NCBI GenBank assembly: GCA_964616915.1
Contig: CAZTSL010000019.1
Span: forward strand, 1-38,184
Direction of reading: 5' to 3'
DNA length: 38,184 bases
DNA from: an uncultured bacterium
Lineage (GTDB): Bacteria > Myxococcota_A > CAZTSL01
Position 1 is the stretch's first letter. Every line of letters begins with the position of its first letter. This document shows positions 3,932-32,768 of this stretch, piece after piece. Made by a program: the position numbers and the translations under genes. The notes beneath the pieces are model-generated. The model saw only the letters and a list, made by a program, of their open reading frames with translations. It ran no database searches and was not told where the DNA came from.

Positions 3932-4018
3932 CGTTCATTCTCCTTCTCGGGTTTCGATCGATCTGTCTCTGGATCGTGGGCACTCCGCCGACAAGTATCC
4001 CGGAAAGAGCGGGTGGGA

Positions 4019-15849: not shown

Positions 15850-16727
15850 ACACCGTTTCCCTGACCTCTCTCGATCTGGGGGTCGCCGCGCTCCTCCTGG
15901 TGGGACTGGCCCTGACGAGCTGGCGGTTGGCGCTCGGGCTCGAGGGGCGGATCTTCATCGCGGCGTTTCGGACCGTGCTTCAGCTCCTCCTCATCGGTCT
16001 CGTGCTCAAGGCGCTCTTTGCCCATGTCGATCCCCTCTGGCTCATGCTGATCGCGCTCGTCATGCTGGCTGCGGCGGGGCGGGAGGTCGTGGCGCGGCAG
16101 AAGTACCGTCTGGAGGGGGGGTGGGCCTTCTTCGTGGGGAGTGGGGCGATGTTCGTCTCCTCCTTTTCGGTGGCTCTCCTTGCGCTCACCGTGGTGATCC
16201 GCGCGGATCCGTGGTATGCGCCCCGCTATGCGATTCCCCTGCTCGGCATGCTGCTCGGCAATACGATGAATGGGATCGCGCTTGCGATGAACCATCTCAA
16301 TGGGCAGGTCTGGCAGGGGCGGGAGATGATCGAGCAACGTCTGATGCTCGGTCAGACGCGGGGGGAAGCGATCGCCGACCTCCGGCGGGAGAGCATGCGA
16401 ACCGGCATGATCCCGATCATGAACGCCATGGCCGCGGCGGGAATCGTCAGTCTCCCCGGGATGATGACCGGCCAGATCCTGGCGGGTGCCCCCCCGACCG
16501 AAGCGGTGAGATACCAGATCCTCATCATGTTCCTCATCACGGCAGGGACGGGATTCGGGACGATCACCGCGATCGCGTTCACCACCCGCCATCTCTTCGA
16601 CGCCCGCCACCGCCTCCGGATCGAACGTCTCCAGGCCATCTCCTCCTCTACAGGGCCGTGGAGGAAGGGGAGGGCGGGTTCGGGGATCTGGCGGCCAGGT
16701 AGAGATCGAGGAGTGCGGCCGCGGTGA
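15846..16727 (+). CDS. fetB: FetB/YbbM-like (UPF0014) ABC exporter permease
   Basis: ATG at 15846. N-terminal region LEGRIFIAAFRTVLQLLLIGLVLKALFAHVDP resembles E. coli FetB (RAIIQLIIVGYVLKYIF). Multi-TM. The 3' tail overlaps the convergent aroA-aroC ORF by about 80 nt, so the C-terminal roughly 30 aa are uncertain. Confidence 0.7.
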   Translation: MNTVSLTSLDLGVAALLLVGLALTSWRLALGLEGRIFIAAFRTVLQLLLIGLVLKALFAHVDPLWLMLIALVMLAAAGREVVARQKYRLEGGWAFFVGSGAMFVSSFSVALLALTVVIRADPWYAPRYAIPLLGMLLGNTMNGIALAMNHLNGQVWQGREMIEQRLMLGQTRGEAIADLRRESMRTGMIPIMNAMAAAGIVSLPGMMTGQILAGAPPTEAVRYQILIMFLITAGTGFGTITAIAFTTRHLFDARHRLRIERLQAISSSTGPWRKGRAGSGIWRPGRDRGVRPR

Positions 16728-19053
16728 ACGCCTCGACGATCACGGGAACACGAAGCACCACGGCGGGGTCGTGACGTCCCGTGACCCGGATCGTCGTGTC
16801 GCGCTGTTCCCGGAGATCGACACTCGCCTGGGGGCGGGGAATCGAAGGCGTCGGTTTGATCGCGATCTGGAAGATGAGCGGCGCTCCGGTCGAGATCCCG
16901 CCCAGAACCCCTCCCGAATGGTTCGAGCCGAGTTGTACGCTCCCTGCAGGGGAGAGATGGTAGGGGTCGTTGTTCTCACTCCCCCGCCGGGCCGCCGCCT
17001 CGAAGCCTGCACCGAAGGCGACCCCCTTGACCGCGGGGATCGTGAAGAGGTAATGCGCCAGGACCGCATCGAGCGCATGGAAGATCGGTTCACCGATCCC
17101 GATGGGGAGACCGTGGACCTGGCACTCCACGATTCCACCGAGCGAGTCCCCCTCCCGCCGAGCCGCGAGGACCACCGAGGCCATCTTCTCGGAGAGGATC
17201 GGGTCGGGACAGCGAACCGGGCTCTTCCAGGTGGCCTGGCGCGCCTCCTCGAAGGTCGGGATCCGAGGGAGCCGCAGATCGGCGATCTGGCGGACATAGG
17301 CGGCGATCGTGATCCCGTACCCCTGGAGGATCTGTCGGGCGACCGCGCCGGCGGCGACCATCCCCACGGTCATCCGGCCGGAGAGGAAGCCTCCTCCGCG
17401 GAAATCGAAGGCCCCGCCATACTTCCGCCAGGCCGTGTAGTCCCCGTGACCGGGACGCGGCGTATGGCGGAGTCGGATGTATGGAGCGTCGTGCCCGTCG
17501 AGGTTCGGGATCTCGATCTCGATCCTCCCTCCCGTCGTCCGGAGCCGTTCCCCTTCCCGAACGAACCCCTTGCGTAGCAGGAGGGGATCGGGTTCCCGAC
17601 GCTGCGTGGTCAGGAGACCCGAGGGTCTCCGTTTGTCGAGATCGGCCGTGATGGCGCGGTAGGAGATCGTCACGTTGGGGGGGAGCCCCTCGATCCGGAC
17701 CCCGACGCACCGTTCGTGCGAGCCTCCGTAGAGGGTGACCTGGAAATGGCGTCCGATCGGTGCGGTCTCGCTGAGCACCACGGCACCCGAGCGCCGCAGG
17801 TCGTGGAAGAAATCGGGGTACGATTTGTTCACGCACTCCGGCTGCGCGATATGGGTCTCCCCGCCGGCGATCATTCCGGCGATCGCCGCGGTCATCACGA
17901 TGCGGTGATCCCCGGCGGGATCGATCCGGGCGCCCTGAAGGATGGCAGGACCCGAGACTTCGAGGGCATCGTCTTCGACCTCGATCCGGGCACCCATCCG
18001 GGCGAGCATCGTGCAGATCGCCCGGAGGCGATCACTCTCCTTCCATCTGAGGCGTTTCGTGTGCGTGATCCGGGTCGTTCCCTGGGCCTGAGTGGCGACG
18101 AGGGCAAGGAGGGGGACGAGGTCGGGGATGTCGCGCGCATCGATCGTGGTCCCCCGCAACGGGGTACGCCGGGCGATCAGGCGTTCCTCCTCCCTTTCGA
18201 TCCTCCCCCCCATCGCCTGGAGGAGGGGAACGATCTTACGGTCCCCTTGCGTCGATCGGGGGGTGAGGCCGCAGAGAGAGATCTGGGGCCCGGCGAGCAC
18301 GCCCCCGGCGAGCCAGACGGCCGCCGCGGACCAGTCCCCCGAGATGGAGAGCCGCGGCGGGGCCTCGAAGCGCTGCCCCCCCGGGACCGTGAGCGTGTCG
18401 CCCCGCGGGGCGCGGGTGACCTCTACGCCGCATCTTTCGAGGAATTCGAGCGTCAACGCAAGGTAGGGGCGCGACACGGGAGGTGTGGGAAGGCGCAGGG
18501 TTCCCCCCCGCGGCGTGAGGGGGAGCGCGAAGAGGAGCCCCGAGAGGAACTGCGAAGTGATATCCGCCGGGATCTCGATCTCCCCTCCCACGAAGCCCCC
18601 CTCCACGGTGAGGGGAAGCGATGTCCCATGAATCCGTGCCCCCTTGCTCCGCAAGACTTCGAGCAGGGGGACGATCGGGCGGCGGGCGAGATCGGGACGC
18701 CCGGAGAAGTGAATCCGTCCGCCGCACACCGCCGCGATGGGCAGAAGCATCCGGAGCGTCGAGGCGGAGGAGGCGCAATCGATGTGGGCCAGGGCAGGGA
18801 TCCGCTCCACGATCGAGCCCTCTCCGAAGGTGATCGCCTCCTCCGAGATCTGCCAGGAGGCCCCCATCCGTCCGAGTGCATCGAGGGTCGCCTCCGTGTC
18901 CTCGCACAGAAGGGGATGCTCGACCCGGACCGCGCCTGCGGCCAGGGCCGCGCAGATCAGCGCACGGTGCGTCTCACTCTTCGAGGGGGGAACGACGAGG
19001 GTGAAGTTCGGCTCGAACTTCGAAGAACGGATCAGGATCGACAGGTCACTCAT
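16648..19053 (-). CDS. In-frame fusion of 3-phosphoshikimate 1-carboxyvinyltransferase (EPSP synthase, AroA) and chorismate synthase (AroC)
   Basis: ATG at 19053 (MSDLSILIRSS). AroA motifs LVVPPSKSETHRALICAALAAG, GDWSAAAVWLAGG, DHRIVMTAAIAG; the domain ends at about ...YPDFFHDLRRSGAVV. The same frame continues without a stop into a chorismate synthase N-terminus (...GRHFQVTLYGGSHE), with later SLGGIVEC and FRGGGFLSGRMTV motifs. About 800 aa in total. Confidence 0.8.
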   Translation of the reverse strand: MSDLSILIRSSKFEPNFTLVVPPSKSETHRALICAALAAGAVRVEHPLLCEDTEATLDALGRMGASWQISEEAITFGEGSIVERIPALAHIDCASSASTLRMLLPIAAVCGGRIHFSGRPDLARRPIVPLLEVLRSKGARIHGTSLPLTVEGGFVGGEIEIPADITSQFLSGLLFALPLTPRGGTLRLPTPPVSRPYLALTLEFLERCGVEVTRAPRGDTLTVPGGQRFEAPPRLSISGDWSAAAVWLAGGVLAGPQISLCGLTPRSTQGDRKIVPLLQAMGGRIEREEERLIARRTPLRGTTIDARDIPDLVPLLALVATQAQGTTRITHTKRLRWKESDRLRAICTMLARMGARIEVEDDALEVSGPAILQGARIDPAGDHRIVMTAAIAGMIAGGETHIAQPECVNKSYPDFFHDLRRSGAVVLSETAPIGRHFQVTLYGGSHERCVGVRIEGLPPNVTISYRAITADLDKRRPSGLLTTQRREPDPLLLRKGFVREGERLRTTGGRIEIEIPNLDGHDAPYIRLRHTPRPGHGDYTAWRKYGGAFDFRGGGFLSGRMTVGMVAAGAVARQILQGYGITIAAYVRQIADLRLPRIPTFEEARQATWKSPVRCPDPILSEKMASVVLAARREGDSLGGIVECQVHGLPIGIGEPIFHALDAVLAHYLFTIPAVKGVAFGAGFEAAARRGSENNDPYHLSPAGSVQLGSNHSGGVLGGISTGAPLIFQIAIKPTPSIPRPQASVDLREQRDTTIRVTGRHDPAVVLRVPVIVEAFTAAALLDLYLAARSPNPPSPSSTAL

Positions 19054-19085
19054 TGGCGATCTTCCCCTCGCAACCTCCCGTGGCG

Positions 19086-20390
19086 TCAAAACGTGTCACG
19101 GGCAGCACGCCTCCTCGCCGGTTTGGAGAGCGGCGCGGCACCGTTGCCGATGAGGGAGAGGTAGTAACGGCTGGCCGAATCCGTGGGGTCGATGGTAACC
19201 ACTTCCTGAAAGCGTGCTCGAGCCTGACGGATCCGTCCGGAGAAGTAGGCATCGATCCCCGATTCGAAGATTTCCCGGGTCGTCTCCTTGCGTTCGATCT
19301 CCTCCGGGAGGGCGCCGTCGAAGATCTCGTAGATCGAAACGACCTCCTGCTTCCCCTTGACCTGCACCCGTCCGAGTCTCCGGGCGTGGAAATGCTCCGG
19401 TGCCTGGAGGTGGTGGATCACGTTCCCCGAGACGATGAAGGGAACGCCGTAGCGCTTCGTCAGGCTTTCGAGGCGGGCGCCGAGATTGACGGCATCGGAG
19501 AGGATGTCCCCACCGATGCGCTCCTCCTCTCCGATCACGCCGAGCATCATCTTCCCGAAATGGACGCCGATTCCGATGTCGATCGGACGGTAGTTCACTT
19601 TTCGACGGTGCTCGTTGTAGAGCCGCACGGCGCGCAGCTTCTCGATCCCGGCAACGAGCGCCGCATCGGGGTTCTCGGGAAAGACCGCCATGATCCCGTC
19701 GCCGAGGAATTTGATGACGAAGCCTCCGTTTTGCCGGATGATCGGGCTGAGCCGTTTGAGGAAGTTGTTGATGAGGTCGAAGTTCTCCTGGACCGTGAGC
19801 GTCTCCGAGAGCGTGGTGAAATTCCGGATGTCGGAGAACATGACGGCCATCTCGAGATGGATGTGGTCGCCGAGCGCGACTTCATCGATCGCCTCCTTGC
19901 GCAGGAGGTGGAGGAGATCCTTCGGAACGAAGCGCAAGGAGGCCGTCGTCAGCGCCTCGAGCATCTCCATCTGCCGGTGGAGGTTTCTCAGGAGCCGATG
20001 CCGCTCGATCGCGTAGAAGATGCTGCGCCGAAGGAGGTGGTGATCGAAACTCCCCTTGACGAGGTAGTCCTGCGCTCCCTGTTGCACCGCGCGGATGCCG
20101 AGCGCTTCGTCCTTGAGGCCCGTGAGCAGGATCACCGGCACGTGCGGAAACCGCTCGTGGGTCGTCTCGAAGGTCGCCATCCCCCGGCTGTCGGGGAGCG
20201 TCAGGTCGAGGAGGAGGAGATCGAACGGCCGCTCGGCGAGTTTCCCCATCCCCTCCGCCAGGGTGTCCGCCGTGGAGAGGTCGATCGTCGCCGTCTCGCT
20301 CCCATGAACCGTGTAGAGGAGTTCCTGCAGGAGGAAGACGTCGTCGGGATTGTCCTCGATCAGGAGGATATGGATTCCAGCAGCAGCCAC
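19086..20390 (-). CDS. Response-regulator receiver fused to a class III adenylate/guanylate cyclase
   Basis: Chosen start is the GTG at 20388-20390 (V of LVAAAGIHILLIEDNP), with AAGGAG (20399-20404 on the minus strand) 8 nt upstream. The longer ORF to 20834 has no RBS and adds a Pro/Ser-rich low-complexity N-terminus. REC motifs ILLIEDN, DLLLLDLTLPD, VPVILLTG. Cyclase motifs AVMFSDIRNFTTLSE, VIKFLGDGIMAVF, NLGARLESL. Confidence 0.8.
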   Translation of the reverse strand: MAAAGIHILLIEDNPDDVFLLQELLYTVHGSETATIDLSTADTLAEGMGKLAERPFDLLLLDLTLPDSRGMATFETTHERFPHVPVILLTGLKDEALGIRAVQQGAQDYLVKGSFDHHLLRRSIFYAIERHRLLRNLHRQMEMLEALTTASLRFVPKDLLHLLRKEAIDEVALGDHIHLEMAVMFSDIRNFTTLSETLTVQENFDLINNFLKRLSPIIRQNGGFVIKFLGDGIMAVFPENPDAALVAGIEKLRAVRLYNEHRRKVNYRPIDIGIGVHFGKMMLGVIGEEERIGGDILSDAVNLGARLESLTKRYGVPFIVSGNVIHHLQAPEHFHARRLGRVQVKGKQEVVSIYEIFDGALPEEIERKETTREIFESGIDAYFSGRIRQARARFQEVVTIDPTDSASRYYLSLIGNGAAPLSKPARRRAARDTF

Positions 20391-24807: not shown

Positions 24808-27800
24808 CTATCGTCTTCTCAGCCGGCGCCAGAGGCGGAACTCGAGGAGGAGGAGGAGGAGCGCCGAAGGGAGGAGCCGCCTGGGCGCCACGGGGACGAT
24901 CCCGCAGCATCCCCCCCCCCCTTCCCCGCTCGATGTCTCCCCTGGGGAAGGGGACGCGCTCTCCACTGTGGTACCGGAAATTTCCCCGCTCGTCAACCCA
25001 CCCTCCGTCGGTTCACCGGAGAGGGGCCCCTCCTCGCTCGTCCCCCCCGTCTCGTCGGTGGTCGAGGGATTCTCGATCGGGTCGCAGACATCACCGATCC
25101 CGTCCCCATCGCCATCCTCCTGCCCCGGATCGAAGGTCTCTGGGCAGTCGTCCTCGTCGTCGCCGACTCCGTCGTTGTCCCGGTCGAAGGGGGAGAGGAG
25201 CCGCAACGCGGGATCCCCGAAGAGGAGGAAGATGTCGTAGATCTGCGCAAAAATCCCGTCGGGCGGCAGGAGCGCCTTTCCCAGGGAGAGGAGGTTGCCC
25301 ATCTCCCGGACGTCCTCCTCGAAAAAACCCCGAAAGAGGTTCTCGTCGAAGACGAAGGCCGCAAAGTCCGTGGACAACCCCGAGGGGGAGAAGGCGCCGA
25401 TCACCCCACCGGAGGGCGTCGCCAGGAGGAGTTCGGCGAGCGCGTCGGAGGATGGAGAGGGAATGATGAAGTACCCGTTCAAACAGTTGAGCGTAAGAAG
25501 GAGGGGGAGACGAAGCCCGTTCTGAAGGGCCGGGACGTCGAAGCGCGTGAAGATCTGCTCGTGCGCCCAGACTTCCGTGTTCCCATGCCCCAGATAGTTG
25601 AGGAAGACCCCTCCGCCGTTCCACGCAGAGAGGATCTCGTCGTGCGTCCCTTCCCCCTGCTGGGAGAGATAGATCTTCTCTGTCTCGTGGGAGGGGGGTA
25701 CCCGCTGCGCGAGGGCGTTCGATTCGTTCTCGAAGTCCCCCGCCGCATCCGCGTTGTCGGAAACGAGGATGACCCGCCGCACGAAGGGTTGCAGGTTCCC
25801 GTTCAGCTCATAGAGGAAGATCTTGTCCGTGATCGCCTCGAGTTCCTCGGCCGTGTTGACCGGCAAGCGTCCGATCGCCATGTCGGGGACGAGATCGACA
25901 CCAGACACGGCAACGAGCACGTTGTCGGAAACGGTCTTGAGGAACTGCGTGGGCACGAGATCGGGGGGGATGTAGTTCGGAACGTTCGTGTTCTGGTAGT
26001 TCTTGAAGTCGAAGTGTCCATCCCCGACGAGGAGGACGTAGCTCGGCACCGGCGTGAGCCATTCCTCGAAGGCGTAGCGGAGGAAGGCGGCGATCGCTCG
26101 CGGGGTTTTCCGGCCAAAGGAAAAGGTGTCGTAGATCTCCTCGACGTCGATCACCTTGACGGAAAGTCCGCGTTCCCGGTGAAAGAGGGCGATTCGCTCC
26201 GCCCCCGTCCGGAAGTCCCGGGGCGTGATGATGAGGTAGTCGGCCTGGTTGCTCGGGAGGGTGAGGGTGGAGGGGATCGCCAGGCGAAGACGGGGAGGCC
26301 TTCGCATCCGTTCCCGCGAGAGGGCGAGATAGCTGCGGGACTCCTCCCCCGACGTGGCGAAGGTGAGCGTCTTCTCCCCCCCCTGCGCCGTGATTTCGCT
26401 CCCTTCGACCCGGCGGGGATGGTCCGGATCGCTGATGTCGTAGAGGAAGAGTTCGTTCCCCGTAAAACCGGAGATCGCGATCCGATGCGCTCCCCCTTCC
26501 CCCACGAAACGGAGTTCGTCCCCCTCGGCAACGAAGCGGCGGGAGAGGTCGATCTCGACATGGTTGAGGAAGAAGCGGTCCACCACCGCCTCGTTCTCCC
26601 CCGCGGCCCGGATCCGGAGGAGGTTCTCCCCCTCGACGAGCACCCCGGGATCGAGCGGGAACTCGACCGTGGCCTCGGTGAGCCCGTCGAAGCCGAAGGA
26701 GGTGAAGGAGAATCCGCCGATCTCCCCCGCGATCCGGTGATCCTCGGTCATCGAGTTCTGATCCGTGGTCTCCCCCCGCGCCGTGATCCGCAGGCGTGCA
26801 GGCGCATCTTCGTCGAAGGGGGGGAGTTCGAGACGAAAGGTCGATTCGTTCCCCCCGATCCGACTCCAGAACCAGTTGTCGTCCTTTTCCCCCAGCCCGA
26901 CATTGAAGTGCGCCTCCCGGTTCTCCTCGAAGTGGAGCGTATCGGGAAAGGTCTCGAGGCGCGGTTCGTCGTGCGGGGTGCCATCGACCGTTCCGATCCG
27001 AAGGCCGGGGGCGTCCCCCTCTACGAGACGATAGACCTCGAAGCGGAGGAAGGGGTCTTGCGGCGCTTCCCCGTAGAAGCGGATCGCGGAAGGGGTCTCC
27101 TCGATGGCGACCGGTTCCCCCCCCCGGAAGAGCTGGAGGTGGGAAGGATCGGTGATGGGGAACCCCGCTTCCTCCATGGCGGAAAGGTCGAGTTCATGGA
27201 ACCCCGTCTCCTCCACGAAGATGTCCAGAACCGTCTCTCCTTCGGTTTCGCTCGTCTCCACCCCTTGCGTCTCCACGCGTCCGAGCCAGCGCTCCGAGGG
27301 GTTGACGACCGCAGCGTCGTAGAGGGCGGCGAAGGGACGCGCCGCCTCCTGGGCGGGAATCCGTCGCTCCGTGGGGACCGGATCGGTGAAATCGAGGGAG
27401 AGACGCAGCCGTCGGTAGAAGTGGAGGCGCTCCCCTTCCGGGAGGAAGGGATTCACCCGCACCCGTGCGATCTTGAGATGCCCAAAAAAGACGATATCCC
27501 CGATTTCCCCCAGGCACTTCGGGAGCCCTCCCTTCCCATCGGGAGGGAGGGGGAAAGGAATCGCCGCCTCGAGGGGGGTGATGCGCAGGGAGACCCGGCG
27601 GCCGGGCAGGACCCCGACGTTGAGAAAGAGGCGGGGCAGGGGGGAGCGGCCTTCGTTTCCCTGGAGGATCGTCATCCCCCTGCCGGCCGGCAGATCGAGC
27701 CGTATCCCCCCATCGACATGCCGGGGGAGACCGAGATCGAGATCGATGACGACCCCCTGCTCCGAGGAGGAAACGACCCGAACCCCTTCCCCCCGCGCGT

Positions 27801-27879
27801 TCCGGCCCCCTCCGAAGAGCCAGAGGAGGATGCAGAGCATCCCGATCTTCACGCCGGATCTCGATTTCCTTCGATTCAT
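24808..27879 (-). CDS. Secreted peptidase C25 (gingipain-like cysteine peptidase) family protein with C-terminal thrombospondin type-3 Ca-binding repeats and a Cys + TM + Arg-rich sorting-signal-like tail
   Basis: ATG at 27879 (MNRRKSRSGVKIGMLCILLWLFGGG, signal peptide). C25 catalytic dyad context NYLGHGNTEVW (His) and LLLTLNCLNGYF (Cys). TSP3 repeats DRDNDGVGDDEDDCPETFDPGQEDGDGDGIGDVCDP. C-terminus GGGGCCGIVPVAPRRLLPSALLLLLLEFRLWRRLRRR. Confidence 0.7.
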   Translation of the reverse strand: MNRRKSRSGVKIGMLCILLWLFGGGRNARGEGVRVVSSSEQGVVIDLDLGLPRHVDGGIRLDLPAGRGMTILQGNEGRSPLPRLFLNVGVLPGRRVSLRITPLEAAIPFPLPPDGKGGLPKCLGEIGDIVFFGHLKIARVRVNPFLPEGERLHFYRRLRLSLDFTDPVPTERRIPAQEAARPFAALYDAAVVNPSERWLGRVETQGVETSETEGETVLDIFVEETGFHELDLSAMEEAGFPITDPSHLQLFRGGEPVAIEETPSAIRFYGEAPQDPFLRFEVYRLVEGDAPGLRIGTVDGTPHDEPRLETFPDTLHFEENREAHFNVGLGEKDDNWFWSRIGGNESTFRLELPPFDEDAPARLRITARGETTDQNSMTEDHRIAGEIGGFSFTSFGFDGLTEATVEFPLDPGVLVEGENLLRIRAAGENEAVVDRFFLNHVEIDLSRRFVAEGDELRFVGEGGAHRIAISGFTGNELFLYDISDPDHPRRVEGSEITAQGGEKTLTFATSGEESRSYLALSRERMRRPPRLRLAIPSTLTLPSNQADYLIITPRDFRTGAERIALFHRERGLSVKVIDVEEIYDTFSFGRKTPRAIAAFLRYAFEEWLTPVPSYVLLVGDGHFDFKNYQNTNVPNYIPPDLVPTQFLKTVSDNVLVAVSGVDLVPDMAIGRLPVNTAEELEAITDKIFLYELNGNLQPFVRRVILVSDNADAAGDFENESNALAQRVPPSHETEKIYLSQQGEGTHDEILSAWNGGGVFLNYLGHGNTEVWAHEQIFTRFDVPALQNGLRLPLLLTLNCLNGYFIIPSPSSDALAELLLATPSGGVIGAFSPSGLSTDFAAFVFDENLFRGFFEEDVREMGNLLSLGKALLPPDGIFAQIYDIFLLFGDPALRLLSPFDRDNDGVGDDEDDCPETFDPGQEDGDGDGIGDVCDPIENPSTTDETGGTSEEGPLSGEPTEGGLTSGEISGTTVESASPSPGETSSGEGGGGCCGIVPVAPRRLLPSALLLLLLEFRLWRRLRRR

Positions 27880-28269
27880 CTTCACCTCGTCGTCTCTCCG
27901 GTGCGCGTGCACCCTGCCGGCTCGATCTCTCCATCGTATCACAATTCCCTTCTGCCTGTCATGGGCGTTCCGGATTGATGCCAGGGCCCCGGCAAAGTCC
28001 AGATCCGGCGCCCGGGGATTGGCCGTCGCGCCGAGGGCAGGAGAACCGGCGAGACGGCGGCAGGTGGCGTAGGAGGTAAGATGCTAGGATGAAGCAAGAA
28101 TGAAGAGATTTGGGCGCACCCGTCCCTCTCCACGCCTGGTGAGGGAGAGCGGCGAGGTGGGTGAGGCGTGGCAGAGGCGTCGGGTGGTCAGGCCAGGCCG
28201 ATCAGGCGCAGCGGGCGTCCGGCAGCGCTATGCCCAGGATGCTCTCGATGCTTTGGCGGAGGCCGCGGC

Positions 28270-28470
28270 GATTGCAAGGAGGAGGCGAATCCGGAGCCCG
28301 AGGACCGGGATCCGGACGGTATCGGGGATGCGTGTGACCCTCGTGTCCGCTGTGGTGGTCGTTCGAGCCTCGTGCTTCCGGGAGATTCCCCCTTCCCCAC
28401 CGAATATCTCCTCGTTGGTCTCGTCCTTGCTTTCACCCGCTACCGGATGCGCCGCGCCCGGTCGGGTCGA
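28270..28470 (+). pseudogene. Relic of the 3' end of a paralogous secreted-protein gene (TSP3 repeat + sorting-signal-like tail), in frame upstream of the metalloprotease start
   Basis: Translation in frame +1 gives ...CKEEANPEPEDRDPDGIGDACDPRVRCGG...DSPFPTEYLLVGLVLAFTRYRMRRARSGR, which closely parallels the C25 tail DGDGIGDVCDP... + hydrophobic stretch + RR tail. There is no signal peptide or RBS for a free-standing gene, and no stop before the metalloprotease ATG. Confidence 0.35.
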
Positions 28471-28612
28471 TCTCTCCTTCTCTCCCATTTCGATTCCTTC
28501 CGTGGGGTGCGGTGCGTGGCTGCGTCCCTCGACGCGGCGAACCGCAAACCGGTGCCCTGCCCTGGCAAAGGGGACGCTTCGCGCCTTTGTCCGGTCGGGG
28601 ACCCTTTTCCCA

Positions 28613-28619
28613 AAGGAGG
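28613..28619 (+). promoter_or_regulatory. Shine-Dalgarno AAGGAGG for the metalloprotease gene
   Basis: AAGGAGG lies 7 nt upstream of the ATG at 28627. Confidence 0.55.
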
Positions 28620-28626
28620 AAAGAGG

Positions 28627-31431
28627 ATGGGAGGAAAAACCTTCGTTTCCCTCACATGGATGCTCACCACCCTGTGGTGGATCTCCGTCACCGCGGCGTA
28701 CGGGGGGGGGAGGATGGCAGGGAGTCGGATCGTCGATCCGGGCATCTTCGTCGATCCCACGGCCGATCCCCTCCATAACGGGAAAATCGTGATCGCGCAT
28801 TATGCCGATGCCGCGGGGATCTCCGACCGTGATCTCGTCTCCGAGGTCGTCCGGGTGGGGAAGGGCGCATACCACGTCCGCTTCCATCAGTACTACCGGG
28901 ACGTTCCGGTGGCCTTCGCCTACCTCGGCGTCCACTACGACCGGCAGGGGCGGGTGCAATTGATCGAGGACCGGACGATCGGAGGGCTTCATCTCTCTGT
29001 TGAGCCGGAGATCCCGGCGACCGAGGCCCTTTCGATCGCTCGAGGGGCGATCGGCATCGTGCGTGAGGCGCGAGGACGGCCGAAGATCGCTCTCCGGATC
29101 GATCCGAGGATCGGCAAGGGGCGCCTCGTCTGGGAGATCCGCTGGCCCACGCTCGAACCCCTCGGCGACTGGCACCTCTTCATCGATGCGAAGCGGGGGA
29201 GGGTGATCGATCGGTGGAACGAACTCTTCTTCGACCGGGCCTTCGTCTACGATCCGAATGCGGTGCAGGCGACGAACGATCCGACACTCTCCGACGAAGA
29301 GAATGCCGACACACCGGCGCTCACGGATGCGCGGGTGGAGATTCCGCTCTTTGGCCTTTCCGGAAACCGGCTCGTCGGCCCCTTCGTCGATCTGTGCGCG
29401 ACAGGGATCACGGGGGCATACAAGCCCGCCTGTCAGGCGGCCGATCCCGACGGCACCCCTCCCTACACCTTCGATTTCACCCGTTCCGACGACCGCTTCG
29501 AGGAGGGGATCGTCTACCATGCCATCGATGCTGTGCAACGCTACATCCAGGATACGCTCGGCTTCACCTCGATCAACAACCGATCGATCCCGGCGCATGC
29601 GCACTACTACGACAGTGACAACGCCTTCTACAGTTCGGACGACAAGGGGCTCCACTTCGGAGATGGCGGCGTCGATGACGCGGAGGACGCCGATGTGATC
29701 CTCCACGAGTATGGCCATGCGATCCTCGACGACCAGGTTCCGGGATGGGGGATCGGTTTCCGGACCGAGCAGCGTGCGATCGGTGAAGGGTTCGGGGACT
29801 TCCTCGCCGGGATGTTCAATCTCGACCGGGGAAGCTCCGCGTATCAGGAGACCCAGGATCGGTGGGCCGCGATCGCGGAGTGGGATGCGGTCTCCTACGG
29901 CACGCCGGTACGCGGCACGACGGCCCTTCGTTGGATCGACGGAACGGACGAGACGACCGGCGAGGATATCGGGGCGTATTCGGGGAAACCCAGCGAGGTC
30001 CACGACGATGGCCGCTACTGGTCCGCGATGTTGACCTGTATCTTTCGCGACCTGGGGCGGGAGGCGACCCTCGAGCTGGCCCTGGAGAGCCACTTCTACC
30101 TCCTCCCCGACATGAGTGACCAGGCCTTCGAGAATGCGGTTTCTGCGATGATCCTCGCCGACGAGACGCTCAACGGGGGGGCCAACCGGGAACGGATCGC
30201 GGAGTGTGCGATGGATCGGAACCTGATCGAATGCGTTCCACTGCCCGCTCCGAGCTTCCTCTCCCCGTCGGGAGGGGAGCATCACCAGGCCGGCGAGGAG
30301 GTGACGATCGCCTGGAGTCGGGAAGGAATTCCCGATGAGGCGACCTTTTCGATCGACTTCACCGATCGCTGCGATCCCTTCCTCTTCGACGACATGGAGG
30401 GGGAACGCTCGGGGTGGAGCGTATCGCATGGCGCCGGGCTCAACGACTGGATGCCCGTCTCCACCCGTTTCCACTCCCCTTCCCATGCCTTCTTCGCGGC
30501 CGGCAGCGACCGGGTGAGCGATCAGTATCTCGTGCTCGAGCCCTTCACCGTGCCGGCGGATGCGCACCTGCGCTTCCATCACTTCTACGACCTCGAGGAA
30601 GGATTCGACGGGGGGGTGATCGAGTTCAGCATCGACGGCGGGCCCTTCGAGGACGCGGGGCTCATGATCGAGGAGAATGGCTATCCCGGCACGATCGTGT
30701 CGGGTACGTGGAGTCCGATCGGCGGCCGTGGCGCCTTCACGGGGGAGAGCCACGGTTTCATCGAGACGGTCGTCGATCTCTCCGCCTTTGCCGGTCACCA
30801 GCTCTCCCTCCGTTTCCGGATGGCTTCGGACCGGATCCTCTCTTCGGAGGGATGGTACGTGGACGATGTCGAGGTGACGGATGGAAGCTGGCAAAACGTC
30901 GTGGCCCAGACCGCGCCAGGAACGACGAGCCTCACATGGCGCCTGCCGGAGGTGGAGAGCGATGCCGCATGCTTTCGGATCTCCATGATGGCGGGGGAAT
31001 GCGAGAGCACCCCCGGGGTACGGAGTGCCCCCTTCGTGATCCTTTCCGGTGATCCGCAGGATGCCGACGGGGATGGGGATGGCGTTCCCGATCTCCACGA
31101 CGACTGCCCGGAGGATGCGAACCCCGACCAGGCCGACGCGGACGGGGATGGCGCGGGGGACGTCTGTGACCCCTGTCCCGCCGACAACCCCGATGATCCC
31201 GACGGGGATGGGGTATGCCAGGGGAGCGACAACTGCCCGGAGGATGCGAACCCCGACCAGGCCGACGCGGACGGGGATGGTCTCGGGGATCCCTGTGATC
31301 CCGAGGTCACCTGTGCCCTCTTTCCCGGCTTTTTCCCCGATCGGTATGCGCGTTGCGCGATGATCCTCCTCCTCCTCGTTTCCCCTTTCCTTCTCGGCGT
31401 ATCGAGACGCACGCGGCCGCCTTGCCACTGA
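28627..31431 (+). CDS. Secreted zinc metallopeptidase, M36 fungalysin / M4 thermolysin-like (HExxH + GEGxGDF), with C-terminal TSP3 repeats and a Cys + TM + Arg-rich tail
   Basis: Signal peptide MGGKTFVSLTWMLTTLWWISVTAAYG. Zinc motif ILHEYGHAILD followed by AIGEGFGDFLAG (third-ligand Glu region, closest to the fungalysin GEGWGDF). Propeptide/PepSY-like N-terminal region. C-terminus DDCPEDANPDQADADGDGAGDVCDPCP...CALFPGFFPDRYARCAMILLLLVSPFLLGVSRRTRPPCH. Confidence 0.75.
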   Translation: MGGKTFVSLTWMLTTLWWISVTAAYGGGRMAGSRIVDPGIFVDPTADPLHNGKIVIAHYADAAGISDRDLVSEVVRVGKGAYHVRFHQYYRDVPVAFAYLGVHYDRQGRVQLIEDRTIGGLHLSVEPEIPATEALSIARGAIGIVREARGRPKIALRIDPRIGKGRLVWEIRWPTLEPLGDWHLFIDAKRGRVIDRWNELFFDRAFVYDPNAVQATNDPTLSDEENADTPALTDARVEIPLFGLSGNRLVGPFVDLCATGITGAYKPACQAADPDGTPPYTFDFTRSDDRFEEGIVYHAIDAVQRYIQDTLGFTSINNRSIPAHAHYYDSDNAFYSSDDKGLHFGDGGVDDAEDADVILHEYGHAILDDQVPGWGIGFRTEQRAIGEGFGDFLAGMFNLDRGSSAYQETQDRWAAIAEWDAVSYGTPVRGTTALRWIDGTDETTGEDIGAYSGKPSEVHDDGRYWSAMLTCIFRDLGREATLELALESHFYLLPDMSDQAFENAVSAMILADETLNGGANRERIAECAMDRNLIECVPLPAPSFLSPSGGEHHQAGEEVTIAWSREGIPDEATFSIDFTDRCDPFLFDDMEGERSGWSVSHGAGLNDWMPVSTRFHSPSHAFFAAGSDRVSDQYLVLEPFTVPADAHLRFHHFYDLEEGFDGGVIEFSIDGGPFEDAGLMIEENGYPGTIVSGTWSPIGGRGAFTGESHGFIETVVDLSAFAGHQLSLRFRMASDRILSSEGWYVDDVEVTDGSWQNVVAQTAPGTTSLTWRLPEVESDAACFRISMMAGECESTPGVRSAPFVILSGDPQDADGDGDGVPDLHDDCPEDANPDQADADGDGAGDVCDPCPADNPDDPDGDGVCQGSDNCPEDANPDQADADGDGLGDPCDPEVTCALFPGFFPDRYARCAMILLLLVSPFLLGVSRRTRPPCH
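31103..31280 (+). repeat. 49-bp perfect direct repeat, two copies (31103-31151 and 31232-31280), encoding duplicated TSP3 repeat units CPEDANPDQADADGDG
   Basis: Read directly: ACTGCCCGGAGGATGCGAACCCCGACCAGGCCGACGCGGACGGGGATGG occurs twice, 129 nt apart, inside the metalloprotease gene. Confidence 0.9.
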
Positions 31432-31601
31432 GGGGGCTCCCTCGAATCGGCTGACCTTCCCTCCTCCTCCTGCCGCCCTGCTCCCTCCCTTTACATCCGG
31501 TCAAGAGCGCCCTATCATCGCCGTTACGGGTCGTGATGAGCGGTTTTCCACGGGAAGCGGCGCACCTCGCCGCGGATCGCCTTCGAGACGAAAGGGGTGG
31601 T

Positions 31602-32768
31602 ATGGGCAAGTGGCGCGTTTCTCTCCTCTTCCTTCTGATCGGGCACGTCTTTCTGGTGCGGGACGCCTCTGGCGGGGCGTTCCGGCACCTCACCGCCCGG
31701 GAAGCGGGGATGGGGGGGGCCGGTGTTGCGCTGGCGGAGGGGGGGCTTGCCCCATACTGGAACCCGGCCCGCCTCGCGGAGGGTGGGGAGGTCGATCTTC
31801 ACCTCGAATTGGGAAGCAGCTATGAGAACCGCAACGACTTCCTCGCGCGCACCGATGCCGCGATCGCGGCGGTCAACCAGGCGATCGAAACGGAGGCGTT
31901 CGCGGACATCGCCGTGGCGGTCGCCGCCGTGGAGGCGCTGGGAGGGGATTTCGCCCAGATCGAACCGAATGTTTCCCTGGGCCTGCGGTGGGCGCGCTAC
32001 GCCCTCCACTTCGTCTCCTACGACACGGCTGCGGCAGGGGTGTCGGGGGTGACCTTCCTCCCCGACCTTCCCGGGGAATACAGCGCCAACGTCTCCGGTC
32101 TCCAGATCGGCGAGATCGCGCTGAGCCACGGCCGCCGGATCCGCTCCGGTGGACCTTCCGTGGGGTTGAGCCTCAAGGCGATCGGAGGGGTGGGGATCGA
32201 GGGACATGTTCCCCTTCGGACGATCGACCGGATGGAGAGCTTTCTGCGGGAGGAGGCGGCCGGCATCGCGTTCAACGGCGTCGCCTTCACCTTCGATCTG
32301 GGGCTTTCCTATCCCCTGGCCAACGACCGGGTCGCGATCGCGATCGTTGGGAAGAATCTGACCGCTCCCCGTATCGATGTGGGGGGAGGGGAGACGGAGA
32401 AGTTTCCTCCGATGGTCCGGTTCGGGGTGGGGGGGTGGATCGCCCCGTGGTGGCGGGTCGAGTTCGATCTCGACGCCACACGGAATACCCGCCGTCTCGG
32501 TTTCGACGCCGTGGAGGGGACGGTCGAGGAGGTCACGACACGGGAGGTGAGCTTCGGTTCCGAGTGGCTCCTGACCCACCGGTGGGCCAGCGCCACACTT
32601 CGTTCCGGGATTTCGAACACCCTCCGGGGGGGAGAAGGGCGGATCACCGCAGGATTGGGCCTGCGCTGCTTTTTTCTCGAGATCTCCGCCGCCGCAGGCA
32701 CGAATTTCGACTTCGATATCGAAGCAAGCGGCTTCGGTCAAATCGGTGTGATGATCCGTTTCGAGTGA
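31602..32768 (+). CDS. Putative outer-membrane beta-barrel protein (TraF_2 / FadL-like fold guess) with signal peptide
   Basis: ATG at 31602. Signal peptide MGKWRVSLLFLLIGHVFLV. Alternating amphipathic strands rich in Gly and aromatic residues. N-terminal GMGGAGVALAEGGLAPYWNPARLA motif and C-terminal ...QIGVMIRFE (aromatic near the end) are consistent with an OM barrel. Lies 170 nt downstream of the metalloprotease on the same strand. Confidence 0.45.
   Translation: MGKWRVSLLFLLIGHVFLVRDASGGAFRHLTAREAGMGGAGVALAEGGLAPYWNPARLAEGGEVDLHLELGSSYENRNDFLARTDAAIAAVNQAIETEAFADIAVAVAAVEALGGDFAQIEPNVSLGLRWARYALHFVSYDTAAAGVSGVTFLPDLPGEYSANVSGLQIGEIALSHGRRIRSGGPSVGLSLKAIGGVGIEGHVPLRTIDRMESFLREEAAGIAFNGVAFTFDLGLSYPLANDRVAIAIVGKNLTAPRIDVGGGETEKFPPMVRFGVGGWIAPWWRVEFDLDATRNTRRLGFDAVEGTVEEVTTREVSFGSEWLLTHRWASATLRSGISNTLRGGEGRITAGLGLRCFFLEISAAAGTNFDFDIEASGFGQIGVMIRFE

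Follow-up and report, generated by a model that had tools for sequence, protein, structure and literature searches.

The window analyzed here, a DNA stretch of 38,184 nucleotides from an uncultured bacterium (contig CAZTSL010000019.1 of assembly GCA_964616915.1, lineage Myxococcota_A), has a G+C content of 64%, and two large protease genes diverge from a spacer of 747 nt. The gene on the minus strand codes for a C25 peptidase and the gene on the plus strand for an M36 metallopeptidase. In the spacer, in frame +1, lies a short segment which contains a thrombospondin type-3 (TSP3) repeat and which is designated remnant in the following. Two related metagenome-assembled genomes (MAGs) are used for comparison: the sister MAG D6812 ("Deltaproteobacteria bacterium", GCA_003694145.1) with contig L002 (RFKX01000715), which carries the intact M36 gene P0003, and D6795 (GCA_003694725.1), a MAG of the same organism as the window, with contigs L003 to L006. 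The features of the locus are:

24808–27879, minus strand: gene of a C25 (PorU-like) peptidase (Peptidase_C25, E 6.6e-78), divergent neighbour with its own TSP3 repeat and Cys/hydrophobic/Arg tail
27880–28264, no strand assigned: spacer between the C25 start and the breakpoint, without similarity to L002 or L004
28265–28273, plus strand: left breakpoint, the end of collinearity with L002
28273–28461, plus strand: putative remnant, the last 63 codons of a lost M36 paralogue (P0003 orthologue), from amino acid, nucleotide and collinear alignments
CKEEANPEPEDRDPDGIGDACD, plus strand: final TSP3 repeat of the remnant, from translation
PRVRCGGRSSLVLPGDSPFPTE, plus strand: Cys-containing linker of the remnant with an aromatic/Pro motif, from translation
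YLLVGLVLAFT, plus strand: hydrophobic stretch of the remnant, about 11 aa, from translation
RYRMRRAR, plus strand: Arg-rich tail of the remnant, from translation
28462–28464, plus strand: place of the lost stop codon, with TAG in L002 and TCG (Ser) in the window
28465–28626, plus strand: putative ancestral spacer between tandem M36 genes, 161 nt in L002, with about 12% mismatches and one 1-nt indel
28627–31431, plus strand: intact M36 metallopeptidase gene, the surviving downstream member of the putative tandem pair, from Pfam and NCBIfam matches

The C25 gene has its true start at ATG 27879 on the minus strand, with a GAGGTG ribosome-binding site and a promoter-like site (27962–27933, minus strand). 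Its product scores 243 bits with the T9SS sortase PorU model NF033707, below the cutoff of 420, and 162 bits with the PorU2 N-terminal model, and may be a sorting peptidase and not a cargo protein. Its homologues in the protein database were a partial sequence from the same population (P0121) and relatives of at most 31% identity; an orthologue from D6812 was not among them.

The M36 gene encodes a signal peptide, an FTP/PepSY propeptide, an M36/M4 catalytic domain, an InhA-like MAM domain, TSP3 repeats and its own Cys/hydrophobic/Arg tail. Its product reaches 79.5 bits with the NCBIfam model NF038112, the cutoff of which is 1500. An exact-protein look-up of the product, from either start, returned no record, and a search against the contigs of species-representative genomes gave only one distant match with 32% identity. 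A 48% identical M36 protein (P0008) is found in an unrelated genomic context and was of no use as an outgroup. The genome of the window's organism, as sampled in D6795, also contains an M36 paralogue of 792 aa (P0071, L005 3001–5379, RFKG01000996 of GCA_003694725.1) which ends directly after a TSP3 repeat (..DGDGIGDACAP*); downstream of it neither a hydrophobic nor an Arg tail is present in any frame, and P0071 may be a second truncated or tail-less TSP3 protease. Just 3′ of the M36 gene an ORF of 411 aa (31533–32768, plus strand) matches the PorV/PorQ family (E 1.6e-12; 47.7 bits, below the cutoff of 90). PorU-like and PorV-like genes flank the M36 gene or genes in a "Deltaproteobacteria" MAG.

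The locus is surrounded by housekeeping genes (DnaJ, AroA-AroC, an amidohydrolase and SAM-cycle genes), and there are no mobile-element genes among them. A single ORF of 813 aa (16648–19089, minus strand) comprises an EPSP synthase domain (residues 31–431) and a chorismate synthase domain (residues 449–798) and looks like a fused AroA-AroC protein. Very long antisense ORFs are seen at many loci, for example one of 1066 aa opposite the M36 gene (28228–31428, minus strand), and are due to the high G+C content; the G+C content of the codon positions separates the real genes (GC3 about 0.8) from these antisense ORFs. At window positions 28228–28488 (minus strand; L003 376–636) the public record of D6795 has a "hypothetical protein" of 86 aa, antisense to the remnant. 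No equivalent gene was called in the sister contig L002, and the 86-aa call is probably spurious, made over pseudogene DNA.

Between 28273 and 28461 the plus strand reads CKEEANPEPEDRDPDGIGDACDPRVRCGGRSSLVLPGDSPFPTEYLLVGLVLAFTRYRMRRAR in frame +1, in the translated context ...GGGRGD-CKEEANPEPEDRDPDGIGDACDPRVRCGGRSSLVLPGDSPFPTEYLLVGLVLAFTRYRMRRAR-SGRSLL.... The translation confirms the order of elements given in the preliminary description, namely one TSP3 repeat, an aromatic/Pro motif (here placed in a Cys-containing linker), a hydrophobic helix and an Arg-rich tail. The sequence DRDPDGIGDACD matches the TSP3 calcium-binding motif DxDxDGxxDxxD and, as can be read directly, is preceded by a flanking Cys (C-KEEANPEPE-DRDPDGIGDACD). 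With Pfam TSP_3 (PF02412) only a weak match to profile positions 1–13 was obtained (E 0.0067; 16.5 bits, below the gathering score of 25), a sub-threshold score that is expected since the remnant holds a single short unit. No N-terminal part, signal peptide or stop codon of its own is present.

The segment had been called almost a copy of the C-terminus of the C25 protein. This did not hold: the alignment with the C25 C-terminus is confined to the generic TSP3 part (55% over 29 aa, E 1e-6), whereas with the C-terminus of the M36 protein in the window both repeat and tail align (41% over 56 aa, E 9e-10). The TSP3 unit alone aligns with the TSP3 units of both the M36 protein (E 3e-7) and the C25 protein (E 1e-6). 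In a HMMER search of 1.84 billion representative proteins the remnant had 623 matches, nearly all of them via the TSP3 motif. Only one covered repeat and tail at high identity and extended to its own C-terminus, and this was P0003 (E 2.1e-27; query positions 1–63 correspond to residues 621–683 of 683). A few other matches have the generic layout of TSP3 repeat, Cys motif, helix and Arg tail with otherwise unrelated sequence.

P0003 (D6812_11080) is a complete M36 metallopeptidase of 683 aa with signal peptide, FTP domain, M36 catalytic domain, four TSP3 repeats and a C-terminal tail which ends in ...CKEEANPDQEDRDSDGIGDACDRRVRCGGRSSLAYSGDSPFPAEYLLVGLVLAFTRYRMRRAR* with a TAG stop codon. When P0003 was compared with the window by tblastn, its residues 620–683 were 86% identical to the remnant over 64 aa, and at the nucleotide level the remnant is 91.5% identical to L002 3593–3781. 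The segment therefore does not represent the end of a third kind of cargo gene but the end of a second M36 metalloprotease gene. A recent duplication of the 3′ end of the M36 gene in the window can be dismissed as its source: with that end the identity is only 41%, whereas with P0003 it is 86% and the flanks are collinear.

The relationship extends beyond the coding sequence. In L002 the gene for P0003 (1733–3784) is followed by a spacer of 161 nt and then, in tandem, by a second M36 gene from position 3946, which from its 93.4% protein identity is the orthologue of the M36 gene in the window. With blastn, window positions 28265–30531 are collinear with L002 3585–5850 at 92.3% nucleotide identity and with a single 1-nt gap. 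What the window shares with the sister genome is thus the end of P0003 (64 residues), the spacer and the M36 orthologue behind it. To the left of this region no match between the window and L002 1–3584 was found except for a paralogous match of 75% inside the intact M36 gene. The window retains only the last 9% of P0003, with the stop codon lost; about 620 of the 683 codons, among them the start and those of the signal peptide and the catalytic domain, are missing together with the upstream signals.

Taken together the alignments suggest, with a probability of about 0.9, that an M36 metallopeptidase gene orthologous to D6812_11080 has left a non-functional 3′ remnant at 28273–28461. Bacterial truncated pseudogenes likewise have homology to the end of a gene only, retained downstream synteny, a missing start, a mutated stop codon and an indel nearby. 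The remnant is an ordinary truncated pseudogene, and its only oddity is that it is open and in frame with the next gene. The extent of 28270–28470 in the preliminary description covers a real segment, which has to be narrowed to a homologous part of 28265/28273–28461, since the residues SGR already fall past the ancestral stop codon. The comparison with related genomes also gave a positive result, as the gene is intact in L002 and there occupies the corresponding place before the M36 gene. In the genome of the window itself an intact copy with the tail of the remnant was not found by protein searches of the D6795 MAG, which like that of D6812 is fragmented; a P0003 orthologue was not among the M36 matches of D6795, the best of which was 62% identical. 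This fragmented genome could nevertheless contain an intact P0003-like copy elsewhere. Scanning the JGI metagenomes for the codon pattern of the tail gave no matches, and a literature search on GCA_003694145.1 and GCA_003694725.1 found nothing.

Remnant (8.5%) and spacer (about 12%) have diverged to a similar degree as the orthologous DNA on either side, so the remnant has changed in step with the two genomes and was not recently transferred. Selection was estimated as dN/dS by the method of Nei and Gojobori. Remnant and P0003 end differ by 16 substitutions only (6.5 synonymous and 9.5 non-synonymous differences), resulting in a ratio of 0.48 compared with 0.15 for the intact M36 pair; the N-terminal part of the M36 gene, however, also has a ratio of about 0.49. 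The value for the remnant is consistent with relaxed constraint on one branch and is not diagnostic. The last 63 nt of the remnant, coding for the helix and the Arg tail, are identical in both genomes. Such a run is not exceptional when compared with the identical runs of 92, 71 and 65 nt inside the M36 gene.

It is conceivable that the stub is not inert, having been kept for the promoter or leader of the M36 gene or acting as a low-level uORF into the M36 start, and more broadly that in this lineage gene ends consisting of TSP3 repeat and tail are preferred breakpoints for the loss or exchange of secreted enzymes between a PorU-like and a PorV-like gene, within a hitherto undescribed sorting system of bacteria other than Bacteroidota. 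We regard this extended proposal as unlikely.

It is likewise unlikely that the locus records a gene replacement. According to this explanation the C25 gene would have taken the place of the M36 paralogue through recombination between TSP3 repeats of different cargo genes, and the sorting module would have served as a portable recombination handle. All three genes at the locus carry a TSP3 repeat and a tail, the upstream neighbours differ between the two genomes, and the breakpoint coincides exactly with the beginning of a TSP3 repeat unit: in blastn the alignment begins at window position 28265 (L002 3585), and homology is certain from TGCAAGGAGG at 28273, the first codon of the last unit (..DNC/KEE.. 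in P0003). However, the left flank of the breakpoint is unique sequence and not TSP3-like in any frame. Upstream of 28265 no similarity to L002 was detected even at a word size of 7, and neither the six-frame translations of 27880–28272 with Pfam nor a search with Rfam gave a match. Since the left flank is without any TSP3-like sequence, Pfam or Rfam feature, recombination between TSP3 repeats is not supported. In addition the C25 gene faces away from the remnant, so that its 5′ end and promoter adjoin the remnant, whereas its own TSP3 repeat and tail are 3 kb away on the other strand. The housekeeping surroundings without mobile-element genes and the finding of one event in one lineage, which does not indicate recurrence, also argue against a replacement. 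Of the earlier proposal of a fossil of recombination or gene replacement, the fossil thus remains, being the 3′ end of a gene that is intact in the sister MAG, whereas replacement through TSP3 recombination is not indicated. The further suggestion that cargo enzymes are swapped in and out at this locus finds no support either; what the data show is the loss of one of two tandem paralogues.

Within the spacer 27880–28264, which also holds the non-homologous 5′ part of a mechanical ORF starting at GTG 28168, a weak same-strand similarity was noted: 27898–27935 resembles 28443–28480 (79% over 39 nt, E about 0.04) around GGCTCGATCTCTCC. One occurrence of the motif comes after the position at which the lost gene had its stop codon, the other a short distance upstream of the C25 start; the repeat could be due to chance or be a second small remnant.

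A chimeric join at about 28270, produced during assembly by the repeated TSP3 DNA, was considered as well. TSP3 repeats are repetitive, and contigs of related MAGs do break at regions shared by paralogues: L002 (5850 nt) and L003 (2679 nt) both end at exactly window position 30531, within the M36 gene and close to where the MAM domain region begins, presumably because the paralogues P0002 and P0026 share this region and collapse the assembly graph. We nevertheless consider a chimera very improbable, since the same junction is present in the separately deposited contig RFKG01000110 (L003, GCA_003694725.1, D6795), which covers window positions 27853–30531 at 99.8% identity (5 mismatches in 2679 nt) and reaches 420 nt to the left of the junction into the start of the C25 gene. 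A second contig of this MAG (L006) equals window positions 25582–27737. Moreover, the left flank is not a repeat, and the loss of the stop codon and the indel are more easily explained by decay of a real remnant.

At the end of the homologous coding sequence the DNA alignment reads ...CGC GCC CGG TAG GCT... in L002 and ...CGC GCC CGG TCG GGT... in the window. Further downstream, near 28580, the window has a 1-nt insertion (GGGGACCC compared with GGGG-CCC in L002). Because of the point mutation from TAG to TCG and the 1-nt indel in the spacer, the remnant is now in frame with ATG 28627. The observation in the preliminary description that no stop codon precedes the ATG of the metalloprotease is correct, as frame +1 is free of stop codons from GTG 28168 to ATG 28627. 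At the given base composition the probability of 55 stop-free spacer codons is about 0.22; the open frame across the spacer is thus unremarkable. The in-frame position is accidental. In L002 the frame of P0003 differs from the frame of the M36 gene, which has a stop codon 20 codons before its ATG.

The least probable explanation, already the less favored one in the preliminary description, is a genuine N-terminal extension with translation of the metalloprotease from GTG 28168 and the TSP3/helix/Arg segment in the mature precursor; it could draw on the open frame and on a GAGGTG about 8 nt before this GTG (contrary to the earlier statement that there is no ribosome-binding site, though of little meaning in a G-rich spacer), but is ruled out for practical purposes by the different frames and intervening stop codons of the sister genome, by the chance expectation for an open frame of this length, by a helix and Arg cluster that would be senseless before the signal peptide of a secreted protease, and by the strong start at ATG 28627. 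At this start the ribosome-binding site AAAGGAGG, the ATG and the signal peptide are conserved in L002, and the N-terminus read from 28627 (MGGKTFVSLTWMLTTLWWISVTAAYGG) is a typical signal peptide. The paralogues P0002 and P0003 as well as the public sequence P0001, which begins with MGGKTF, start at the point equivalent to 28627. Translation of the metalloprotease therefore most probably starts at ATG 28627, and translation of the remnant would not be expected.

Returning to the truncated pseudogene, we propose the following course of events. The ancestor would have had a P0003-like gene and the present M36 gene as a tandem pair, the P0003-like gene coming first and a spacer of about 160 nt separating the two. 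Most of the first gene would then have been lost in a deletion or rearrangement which ended on the right at 28265–28273 and took with it the promoter, the signal peptide, the catalytic domain and every TSP3 repeat except the last. That the final 63 codons and the spacer were spared is probably explained by their position, as they lie next to the expression signals of the M36 gene or contain them. Presumably the spacer 28465–28626 carries the promoter of the surviving M36 gene; a plus-strand scan of this spacer detected neither a sigma-70 consensus promoter nor a terminator, and Rfam gave no match. Later, the change from TAG to TCG and the 1-nt indel would have joined the two reading frames, so that on paper the remnant runs into the M36 gene.

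We infer that the direction of change is loss in the lineage of the window and not gain in the sister genome. In L002 the end of an SMC gene and a TonB-like gene precede P0003; both are missing from the window, which has the C25 gene in this place. The D6795 orthologue of the TonB-like gene (P0135, 74% identity) was found on L004. There the homology to L002 stops at L004 1335, equivalent to L002 1698 and 35 nt before the start of P0003; beyond 1335, L004 continues with a gene of 421 aa and T2SS ATPase genes which are absent from L002 and from the window. The breakpoints of L004 and of the window with respect to L002 imply that the D6795 lineage is without exactly the body of P0003, the two flanks of which are not adjacent within at least 33 kb. 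As the upstream contexts differ between the genomes, at least one further rearrangement must have happened. Either the ancestor had the order TonB-like gene, P0003, M36 gene, all in one direction, and the lineage of the window experienced a larger rearrangement or replacement, or the ancestor had the divergent C25 gene upstream of P0003 and the M36 gene, in which case a simple deletion of about 2 kb occurred here and D6812 was rearranged upstream.

The tail of the remnant and of P0003 resembles a known class of sorting signals. In the tripartite signals of the MYXO-CTERM type a signature motif, in which a Cys is invariant, is followed by a transmembrane segment and a cluster of Arg residues; these signals are processed by myxosortases of the CPBP type (Haft, bioRxiv 10.1101/2023.06.07.544157; PMC11980579). 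The tail likewise has a Cys motif (RVRCGG...), a hydrophobic segment and an Arg cluster, here preceded by TSP3 repeats. In NCBIfam there is a model named myxosortase-dependent M36 family metallopeptidase (the above-mentioned NF038112), and the layout of a secreted M36 protease with a Cys/hydrophobic/Arg tail at its end is common to these proteins and P0003. Many of the library matches of the remnant have a TSP3 repeat followed by GCGC, a helix and an RRRR tail. Unlike in MYXO-CTERM signals, however, the hydrophobic stretch has only about 11 residues, and the aromatic/Pro motif PG..FP..Y is not part of them. When the four tails (the three at the locus and the one of P0003) were compared with NCBIfam by hmmscan at E values up to 10, no sorting-signal model such as TIGR03901 matched, and a sorting enzyme, such as a CPBP-type protease, was not identified among the window genes scanned. 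P0003 has its tail at the extreme C-terminus of a protein with an N-terminal signal peptide, whereas the remnant does not. By analogy the intact parent protein would thus resemble a secreted protease with a sorting signal, and we do not file its tail under MYXO-CTERM.

At the locus three different Cys/helix/Arg tails follow TSP3 repeats (24808–24930, minus strand; 31290–31431, plus strand; 28330–28461, plus strand), and the PG..FP..Y motif is common to the M36 tail and the remnant. As none of them matches a curated NCBIfam sorting-signal model, the tails may be a lineage-specific sorting signal.

The main use of the remnant is for the correct annotation of the M36 start at 28627. An automatic gene caller could extend the metalloprotease by 153 codons to GTG 28168 or call a spurious ORF across the remnant. 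For the biology of these organisms the remnant would testify to a recent event by which two closely related hot-lineage MAGs (about 92% nucleotide identity) came to differ, the loss of one protease from a tandem pair of secreted M36 enzymes. More interesting than the remnant itself is the family of tails together with the flanking PorU-like and PorV-like genes: tails of the TSP3 plus Cys/hydrophobic/Arg type are found on several secreted proteases of this lineage, and none of them fits a curated sorting-signal model.
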